From Escherichia coli (GTDB lineage Bacteria > Pseudomonadota > Gammaproteobacteria > Enterobacterales > Enterobacteriaceae): a DNA stretch of 64,000 nucleotides. Both the position numbers and the translations under genes were made by a program. Position 1 is the first letter of the stretch. Each line of letters starts with the position of its first letter. This document shows positions 4,485-56,864 of the stretch, in pieces. The notes beneath the pieces are model-generated. The model did not search any database, was not told the origin of the DNA, and worked only from the letters and a program-made list of their open reading frames with translations. The stretch lies in NCBI RefSeq assembly GCF_003334815.1, contig NZ_QOWO01000014.1; one strand, 5' to 3'.

Positions 4485-4813
4485 TAGCTCGCATCATCCG
4501 CAAAAAGAGCATCCAGTTTTTCCAGCTCAGCCAGAATAAGCGCGCGTTGCGGATGGTCCGTCGCCAGCGCCATTTCATAATAGGGTGCAACGGCAAAAGC
4601 GCCCGGTAACGGCTGTTTGTTATCTAACAAATCGTGCATTCGCGGGATCAGCACCCACTGCAACCACTCCAGTGGTTCCATGGTGTCCATAAAGAACGGT
4701 TGGGTACTATTAAATTGATGCGGCTGGGGTTCATCGTTTCGCCAGTGCTGATGTTCACGCAGTAACGCTTCAAGCGCCTGCAACTGGAGACGAACGCGGT
4801 CATGAGTGGTCAT
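4484..4813 (-). CDS. yqcC: DUF446 family protein
   Basis: 109-aa ORF MTTHDRVRLQLQALEALLREHQHW...; position between truC and csrB. Confidence 0.82.
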   Translation of the reverse strand: MTTHDRVRLQLQALEALLREHQHWRNDEPQPHQFNSTQPFFMDTMEPLEWLQWVLIPRMHDLLDNKQPLPGAFAVAPYYEMALATDHPQRALILAELEKLDALFADDAS

Positions 4814-4855
4814 AAAGCAACCTCAATAAGAAAAACTGCCGCGAAGGATAGCAGG

Positions 4856-5224
4856 AATAAAAAAAGGGAGCACTGTATTCACAGCGCTCCCGGTTCGTTT
4901 CGCAGCATTCCAGCTACTTTTGTTGCTCCCTGCTCATCCTTGACAACTTTTCCTCTGGCCTTGCGGCCAATCGTTCATCCTGAACTATTGCTTCCTGCTC
5001 ACACCACCCCGATGTGATACTTCATCCTGAAGTGTCCCTGGCCTTCCTGACCCACCGAATCATCCTGACCGGTTCTCATTCTCCATCCTGGAGGTGTCCT
5101 TTAACGCGTCCTGCGTCATCCTCTTCGCTTCATCCAGAAGCCTTTCCCTGAAACACCATCCTGGTGTGTCCTGCAGAAGTGTCATCATCCTGATGTTCAC
5201 TTCGTTGTCTGACTCCCTGTCGAC
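4856..5224 (-). ncRNA. csrB: CsrB small RNA (CsrA-sequestering); ends approximate to within about 5 nt
   Basis: Minus strand carries about 18 repeats of CAGGA(U/A)G / AGGA motifs (seen as catcctg / tcctg on plus strand 4930..5220) and ends in a GC hairpin plus U-run (plus 4857..4889); no credible ORF. Confidence 0.85.
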
Positions 5225-5397
5225 GAAGATAGAATCGTCTTTTTCGCGAAGTCTTACAAGGCGCTTACAGACAATGCCTTAAGGAAAATTTCATATGAAA
5301 GTTAAGAATTAACAATCAACATTTTGATTTTAAATGAAAATAACGATTCTTATCTTTTTAAGTATTCGCTTATTTCCTGGCGATCTCCTACAGAGTC

Positions 5398-5415
5398 TGT
5401 AAGAGATCTCTCACA
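5398..5415. promoter_or_regulatory. 18-bp near-palindrome TGTAAGAGATCTCTCACA, matches the UvrY/SirA response-regulator site upstream of csrB
   Basis: Near-perfect inverted repeat about 175 bp upstream of the inferred csrB 5' end; recalled consensus TGTGAGAGATCTCTTACA. Confidence 0.6.
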
Positions 5416-23395: not shown

Positions 23396-23601
23396 ACTTC
23401 CTGAGCCGGAACGAAAAGTTTTATCGGAATGCGTGTTCTGGTGAACTTTTGGCTTACGGTTGTGATGTTGTGTTGTTGTGTTTGCAATTGGTCTGCGATT
23501 CAGACCATGGTAGCAAAGCTACCTTTTTTCACTTCCTGTACATTTACCCTGTCTGTCCATAGTGATTAATGTAGCACCGCCTAATTGCGGTGCTTTTTTT
23601 T
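23396..23601 (+). ncRNA. gcvB: GcvB small RNA; ends approximate
   Basis: Starts ACTTCCTGAGCCGGAACGAAAAG, contains the G/U-rich seed tgtgatgttgtgttgttgtgtttg (23461..23484) and ends in hairpin gcaccgcctaattgcggtgc plus T8; divergent from gcvA as in the known arrangement. Confidence 0.85.
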
Positions 23602-26595: not shown

Positions 26596-26693
26596 GCCTG
26601 ATGCGCTACGCTTATCAGGCCTACATAACTCCTGCAATATTTTGGATTTGCATGATTTGTAGGCCGGATAAGGCGTTCACGCCGCATCCGGCA
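26596..26693. repeat. Pair of REP elements (BIME-like) in the tcdA-mltA gap
   Basis: gcctgatgcgctacgcttatcaggcctac (26596..26624) and gtaggccggataaggcgttcacgccgcatccggca (26659..26693), classic REP palindromes in opposite orientation. Confidence 0.7.
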
Positions 26694-28085: not shown

Positions 28086-28162
<77 letters not shown>

Positions 28163-56580: not shown

Positions 56581-56668
56581 AAAAAAAACCTGCGCATCCG
56601 CGCAGGTTGGTGCAAGAGACAGGGTACGAAGAGCGTACCGAATAATCTCACCAATCAATACCTCTGGG
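56581..56668 (-). ncRNA. omrA: OmrA small RNA (88 nt)
   Basis: Minus strand reads CCCAGAGGTATTGATTGGTGAGATTATTCGGTACGCTCTTCGTACCCTGTCTCTTGCACCAACCTGCGCGGATGCGCAGGTTTTTTTT. Confidence 0.87.
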
Positions 56669-56782: not shown

Positions 56783-56864
56783 AAAAAAAACCTGCGCATC
56801 TGCGCAGGCTGGTGTAATTCATGTGCTCAACCCGAAGTTGACTTCACCTATCAATACCTCTGGG
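56783..56864 (-). ncRNA. omrB: OmrB small RNA (82 nt)
   Basis: Minus strand reads CCCAGAGGTATTGATAGGTGAAGTCAACTTCGGGTTGAGCACATGAATTACACCAGCCTGCGCAGATGCGCAGGTTTTTTTT; shares 5' and 3' ends with omrA. Confidence 0.87.

Follow-up and report, generated by a model that had tools for sequence, protein, structure and literature searches.

The yqcC-syd intergenic region of an Escherichia coli genome carries csrB, a CsrA sponge RNA with a distal UvrY palindrome

The region between yqcC and syd in the stretch of Escherichia coli DNA analyzed here (64,000 nucleotides, hereafter the window) raises the question of what is encoded in a repeat-rich gap whose plus strand also holds open reading frames. CsrA acts globally, at the post-transcriptional level, on carbon metabolism, motility, biofilm formation and virulence, and csrB has been characterized since 1997. 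A sequence-only reading of the window had placed csrB in this gap, on the minus strand, as a known element that alignment should identify, and alignment bears this out. In a covariance-model search the Rfam family RF00018 (CsrB), with a curated gathering score of 71 bits, matches 4856..5215 on the minus strand at 380.4 bits (E = 1.2e-110), and the match spans the full model (positions 1-356 of 356), as is expected of a member of the CsrB/RsmB family. The yqcC-syd intergenic region of 621 nt is 100% identical to that of K-12 MG1655, the record of which annotates csrB (b4408) as a 369-nt ncRNA between the same two genes. The csrB gene can therefore be placed at 4856..5224 on the minus strand, with +1 at 5224, as a 369-nt non-coding RNA with 22 GGA triplets and the role of a CsrA sponge; this placement rests on the Rfam match, the identity to K-12, the GGA statistics and the fold z-score. 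The Rfam match and b4408 agree on the strand, and the curated K-12 gene has the same length and corresponding coordinates. Within the locus, no difference from K-12 CsrB is seen in sequence, location, strand, length, terminator or promoter elements. Outside csrB, the window has one initiator tRNA-Met gene (28086..28162, plus) compared with three in tandem in MG1655 (metZ, metW and metV), and the window is therefore not from MG1655, even though the two csrB loci are identical.

CsrB and CsrC belong to one Rfam clan and are alike in their GGA-hairpin design and their dependence on UvrY, and CsrC (b4457) is likewise a GGA-hairpin CsrA sponge activated by UvrY from about -180, which would suit another sponge of the Csr/Rsm clan, such as CsrC, in place of CsrB. 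The best model of the clan is nevertheless CsrB, at full length and 380 bits, and the syd-yqcC gap is the csrB locus, whereas csrC of K-12 lies between yihA and yihI. CsrC is also shorter (246 nt), with fewer sites, a less symmetric UvrY site and no dependence on IHF, and it lacks both the promoter-proximal TGTAAG repeats and the TTTC-N4-GAAA element that are present at csrB. The probability that the locus encodes a clan member other than CsrB is accordingly negligible.

The csrB locus recurs throughout the complete genomes of the species: a 901-nt query spanning the gap matches all 5,426 complete E. coli genomes, and csrB itself is found in 5,426 of 5,426 with an identity of at least 95%. Across the Enterobacterales the order queF-syd-csrB-yqcC-truC-yqcA is kept; Syd and YqcC/TruC flank GGA-rich RNAs in Photobacterium too, and YqcC/TruC stand beside GGA-rich RNAs in Vibrio and Shewanella. 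The gene for BarA, the kinase controlling csrB, lies about 6 kb from csrB in K-12, just beyond the window. A plasmid-borne csrB, suggested by one match, was rejected, as the PLSDB matches consist of mislabelled chromosomes and a 728-kb Salmonella record; NZ_OL790696.1, NZ_CP141089.1 and NZ_CP134663.1 are "plasmids" of 4.8-4.9 Mb and evidently E. coli chromosomes. Two strains carry insertions at the locus. In strain 1919D62 (NZ_CP046009.1) an IS3-family element splits csrB at window positions 5131-5133 (RNA positions ~92-94) with a 3-bp duplication, and strain 100248 (NZ_CM128594.1) has an IS200/IS605 element at 4861-4863, within the U-tract of the terminator that separates csrB from yqcC. Rfam also scores other small RNAs in the window, namely GcvB (199 bits, 23396..23601, plus), the OmrA/OmrB pair (56581..56668 and 56783..56864, minus, 96.6 and 86.1 bits) and ES036/CssrF (26617..26659, minus, 46.5 bits).

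The RNA strand of csrB contains 22 GGA triplets compared with two on the plus strand, and csrB is the densest 369-nt GGA window in the entire 64 kb, the runners-up having 13 (minus strand) and 14 (plus strand). The bias is sharper for longer motifs: AGGA occurs 14 times in csrB and six times in the best other 369-nt window of the 64 kb, and GGAUG occurs nine times against 1.07 +/- 0.97 in dinucleotide shuffles. Plain GGA is only modestly enriched by the same measure, the RNA being purine-rich: the 22 copies compare with 14.7 +/- 2.5 in the shuffles, which reach 24 at most, a difference of only about 3 standard deviations. What sets csrB apart is thus the extended motif, together with the strand bias and the placement in loops. 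Nine repeats match CAGGA(U/A/C)G perfectly; allowing one mismatch raises the count to 13, and allowing two raises it to 16. Both figures occur in the literature on CsrB, in which the potential CsrA sites number 22 and the CAGGA(U/A/C)G repeats, like the CsrA subunits bound, about 18 (PMC3856055, PMC7652899). The earlier estimate of roughly 18 motifs is therefore apt as the classic count of repeats or CsrA subunits but falls short of the strict count of GGA triplets, which is 22.

The predicted fold of the csrB RNA has an energy of -120.7 kcal/mol and a z-score of -3.85 relative to shuffled sequences. In the predicted minimum-energy structure 16 of the 22 GGA triplets are fully unpaired and nine lie in hairpin loops; in the partition function the mean unpaired probability is 0.80 for GGA nucleotides and 0.36 for all others, the reverse of the loop-less placement that had been named beforehand as evidence against csrB. 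The same arrangement recurs in 28 genera of Enterobacterales, where RNAs of 302-419 nt hold 21-30 GGA each (median 24), with unpaired probabilities of 0.51-0.80 for GGA and 0.32-0.45 for the rest. An RNAalifold consensus for 16 Enterobacteriaceae genera comprises 76 pairs in 16 helices, and GGA occupies 10 of its 14 hairpin loops, each in at least 14 of the 16 sequences. Standard pairs are formed in 97.4% of the consensus cells, a share that falls to 34-50% once the 3' partners are shifted by 1-3 columns, and 28 pairs are changed on both sides compared with 3-8 in these controls; none of 500 shuffles attains any of the observed covariation measures. Since one alignment served both to predict the structure and to score it, the comparison is tilted in its favor relative to the shifted controls. 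The GGA motifs thus appear, as anticipated, in predicted hairpin loops on covarying stems, and in the predicted structures many of them occupy the hairpin loops and single-stranded linkers that characterize the CsrB/RsmB family.

Two plus-strand open reading frames overlap this region. The first (4802..5017, 71 aa) runs antisense to the 3' portion of csrB and the start of yqcC, and the second (5094..5282, 62 aa) to the csrB promoter and the 5' portion of the gene. Their existence is what could be said for a pair of plus-strand small proteins, with the periodicity of GGA as a by-product of coding. Neither frame has an NCBIfam match at E-values up to 1, and neither is a CDS in the curated K-12 record or in PGAP records. 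Among the 28 genera, antisense frames of at least 40 aa agree neither in position nor in frame nor in length, and five genera lack them; no conserved frame is found on either strand of csrB, and what is conserved is RNA hairpins with compensatory changes. The plus strand has 11 stop trinucleotides per 369 nt, close to the 13.2 +/- 4.0 of the window as a whole, and frames of this size are expected by chance. Small proteins are effectively refuted as an explanation and retain an exceedingly small probability. Depletion of stop codons by the repeat was considered as the cause of the frames and rejected, since stop density is ordinary; the frames are chance products of a common size. Hence the sequence-only reading was right to regard them as spurious, being unconserved and without a protein family, but not in calling them artefacts of the repeat. 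Its description of the gap as non-coding but highly structured agrees with the lack of a conserved frame and with the fold z-score. In every sampled RefSeq record PGAP annotates nothing under csrB, which only the curated K-12 record names, and it is this omission that lets the gene track display the spurious frames. The K-12 annotation and the +1 numbering support the view that csrB would be expressed as a discrete, untranslated transcript of the minus strand.

The series of repeats was also expected to end in a terminator, and one is found at the 3' end of csrB. It extends over 4859..4891 on the minus strand and consists of an 11-bp, G+C-rich hairpin (4866..4891; 11 pairs, seven of them G-C) followed by seven U (4859..4865), and is the sole strong minus-strand terminator in the region. 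Its helix (helix 16 of the consensus) is paired in 100% of cells across the 16 genera and is essentially invariant; a 3' Rho-independent terminator is a further trait of the CsrB/RsmB family. Just 5' of it lies the unstructured stretch GAAACGAACC (4892..4901, minus), whose AACGAA is unchanged in all 28 genera. RNase E has been reported to enter CsrB in an unstructured segment near the terminator during CsrD-dependent decay (PMC7652899), and on the basis of its position and of the AACGAA invariance GAAACGAACC is the probable entry site, the exact stretch being our assignment.

Downstream of csrB, yqcC follows in the same orientation after only 42 nt, and the two genes are neighbors in most Enterobacterales, an arrangement that would suit a csrB acting mainly in cis, as a leader of yqcC-truC-yqcA through terminator read-through. 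The strength and invariance of the terminator speak against such a leader, as does the presence of other DNA between csrB and yqcC in several genera. Moreover, yqcC appears to have a conserved extended -10 of its own. The element TGCTATCCT (TGnTATnCT; 4845..4853, minus) abuts the csrB terminator, 32 nt before the yqcC ATG; 21 of the 28 genera have it, and it travels with yqcC where insertions part the two genes. It was for this reason rejected as a part of csrB and is most likely the extended -10 of yqcC, so that 4845..4853 probably belongs to the yqcC promoter. With a trans-acting sponge role already established for CsrB, a predominantly cis-acting leader is very improbable, and csrB is best regarded as a sponge gene that is terminated before yqcC.

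At the other end of the locus, the near-palindrome of 18 bp TGTGAGAGATCTCTTACA (5398..5415) occupies -191..-174 relative to +1 at 5224, with its center at -182/-183 (-182.5). The coordinates had been given correctly, and the proximal edge at -174 agrees with a stated distance of about 175 bp from the RNA 5' end; as a palindrome, though, the element is imperfect, since 16 of its 18 positions are symmetric and one pair is mismatched. It conforms to the UvrY/SirA/GacA site TGTRAG-N6-CTYACA (read 5415..5398) and is unique in the window even at three mismatches (0.03 expected). UvrY protects an 18-nt inverted repeat centered at -183/-182 in a DNase I footprint on the identical sequence, and its ChIP-exo crosslink at the csrB palindrome is BarA-dependent (Zere et al. 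2015, PMC4682653). The designation "UvrY-type" is borne out by this coincidence with the published footprint of phosphorylated UvrY (UvrY-P), and the computed and published centers agree exactly.

A third UvrY-like half-site, TGTAGGAGATC (5382..5392, minus; -168..-158), lies 5 bp downstream of the palindrome and has been noted for E. coli and Salmonella (Zere et al., PMC4682653). Its core, TGTnnGAnAT, is retained in 28 of 28 genera, though it lies outside the search pattern with which these loci were retrieved. The only unbiased check on the palindrome is the Salmonella locus, which was fetched by overall similarity; there ~40 nt comprising the TGTGAGAGATCTCTTACA 18-mer and the third half-site are identical, and the next ~60 nt have diverged almost completely. 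GATC (Dam) sites occur at the exact center of the palindrome (5405..5408) and in the third half-site (5382..5385); the central AGATCT was forced by the search pattern, so the conservation of GATC in the fetched loci is uninformative.

The association of this palindrome with a GGA-rich RNA extends well beyond E. coli. A scan for TGTRAGAGATCTCTYACA in one genome per species gave at least 120 loci, those listed belonging to Enterobacterales, Vibrionaceae, Shewanella, Halomonadaceae, Alcanivorax and Kangiella. Among the matches listed, 93 of ~125 exact palindromes in other Gammaproteobacteria (~74%) have a GGA-dense RNA downstream (17 or more GGA on one strand and 0-3 on its complement, within a 350-nt segment that opens 150 nt from the palindrome). 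An exact match to the palindrome was the criterion by which these loci were chosen, so that its own conservation is there by construction. The RNA starts ~170-220 nt from the palindrome among the matches listed, and a full-length Rfam CsrB is found beside it in 13 of 17 sampled loci. A UvrY site far upstream of a sponge gene, at about -180, is thus a link conserved across taxa. The asymmetric form of the palindrome favors one orientation relative to the RNA: the 93 linked loci listed comprise 61 with TGTGAGAGA on the distal and TCTCTTACA on the proximal side, 12 with the opposite arrangement and 20 that are perfectly symmetric, each related genome being counted separately.

The known sponges RsmB, CsrB1-3, RsmY and RsmZ with a GacA/UvrY box (TGTAAG-N6-CTTACA) resemble csrB in the palindrome, the spacing of ~170-220 nt, the strongly strand-biased, GGA-dense RNA and the intrinsic terminator, but differ from it in RNA length, copy number and primary sequence. 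The sponge RNAs of Shewanella, Vreelandella and Alcanivorax score below the Rfam gathering score for CsrB. In two Shewanella loci and one each of Vreelandella and Alcanivorax, strand-biased segments with 10-22 GGA lie beside the palindrome and match no Rfam family at the gathering threshold; these segments are presumably divergent Csr/Rsm sponges.

Between the UvrY site and +1 several further elements can be recognized. Two overlapping perfect matches to the IHF site WATCAANNNNTTR lie at 5314..5329 (-105..-90) and are two of only three perfect matches in 64 kb; their TCA...TT core is kept in the 28 genera. A putative IHF site was placed between two UvrY crosslink regions, and CsrB drops ~10-fold in ihf mutants (PMC4682653). 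The ArcA motif GTTAATTCTT, published at U00096.3 2,924,604-2,924,613 and confirmed by mutation in 2025 (PMC12266141), falls at 5304..5313 on the minus strand (-89..-80) when converted with the offset between K-12 and the window. Closer to the start, position and conservation point to a putative -10 region, GATTCTAT (5229..5236, minus), in which GATTCT at -12..-7 (5236..5231) is a weak match (3 of 6) and is conserved as GATTCTAT in Enterobacteriaceae. The putative -35, TTGTAA (5254..5259, minus; -35..-30), stands at a 17-bp spacing from GATTCT, and its TTG is invariant in 28 of 28 aligned genera. A strict sigma-70 consensus scan of the csrB region returned no promoter, which fits an activator-dependent one. 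A terminator-like hairpin on the plus strand (5222..5239; GACGAAGATAGAATCGTC followed by TTTTT) overlaps the -10 and +1 of csrB; it is probably a chance match, three such sites being present against 1.0 +/- 1.2 expected.

The UvrY half-site hexamer TGTAAG is present as two direct repeats on the minus strand, at 5264..5269 (-45..-40) and 5253..5258 (-34..-29). They overlap the -35 and are the same in Salmonella; the background rate of TGTRAG is 0.45 per kb. Both fall inside the promoter-proximal UvrY ChIP-exo region, which extends over -56..+25 (PMC4682653). An orphan occupancy peak common to csrB and csrC has also been reported (PMC12266141), and the repeats were considered as its cause; the csrC promoter has no TGTAAG half-sites near its -35, so that the repeats cannot explain a peak shared by both genes and this explanation was rejected.

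A further element of the csrB promoter is the perfect 12-bp palindrome TTTCATATGAAA (5289..5300, minus; -76..-65), of the form TTTC-N4-GAAA. In 16 Enterobacteriaceae loci, Salmonella included, it stands at a fixed 105-107 nt from the center of the UvrY site, with invariant TTTC and GAAA arms around four variable inner nucleotides. Shuffled spacers give TTTC-N4-GAAA at any position in 2.5 +/- 1.6 loci, a comparison in which the 16 loci are related and their counts not independent. The palindrome abuts the ArcA motif (-89..-80) without overlap and was rejected as the ArcA site itself, as the published ArcA coordinates correspond to 5304..5313 and are adjacent only. It is absent from Zere et al. 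2015 (PMC4682653) and from the literature searched, although Martinez et al. 2014 may cover it; a literature search by the sequence of TTTCATATGAAA returned only cloning primers with NdeI sites. In a defined system UvrY-P together with IHF did not bring about csrB transcription, and Zere et al. invoked an unknown factor (PMC4682653). That TTTCATATGAAA is a conserved regulatory element which could bind this factor is a speculative proposal with a rather low likelihood.

The mechanism proposed for the locus combines two sources. The identity of the locus, the motif enrichment, strand bias, loop placement, covariation, terminator, positions of the promoter elements and link between palindrome and RNA were derived here, while CsrA binding, the binding of UvrY, IHF and ArcA, and the decay pathway are taken from literature on the identical sequence. 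According to that literature, BarA would phosphorylate UvrY and UvrY-P would bind the palindrome at -182/-183, with the adjacent third half-site probably sharing in the binding. IHF would bend the AT-rich spacer at about -100 and ArcA would bind -89..-80, both being reported to help activate a weak sigma-70 promoter (+1 at 5224, minus) that would in this way be switched on from a distance. The 369-nt transcript is predicted to form a string of short hairpins with GGA in loops or single-stranded linkers. Each CsrA dimer would take two GGA sites, so that one CsrB could, by published estimates, sequester ~9 dimers (~18 subunits), and this sequestration would relieve the control exerted by CsrA on its mRNA targets. 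Transcription would end at the intrinsic terminator, and RNase E cleavage just before it would start decay, under CsrD and EIIA-Glc as described in the literature. Taken as a whole, the segment is almost certainly the E. coli csrB locus, with a weak, distally activated sigma-70 promoter, a CsrA sponge, a terminator and decay through RNase E, and no observation speaks against this reading.

The identity and strand of csrB, its terminator, its GGA repeats and the UvrY palindrome are all already known, and in this respect the finding is an ordinary one. CsrB is the main antagonist of CsrA, and the locus is biologically important, though its confirmation brings no new biology. Possible novelty is confined to side observations, chief among them TTTC-N4-GAAA at -76..-65. 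For the genome records of the species, the analysis means that csrB goes without a PGAP annotation in essentially every E. coli genome of RefSeq. For the regulation of csrB, it means that even this well-studied promoter still has conserved sequence to account for, in the form of the palindrome near -70 and the promoter-proximal TGTAAG repeats.
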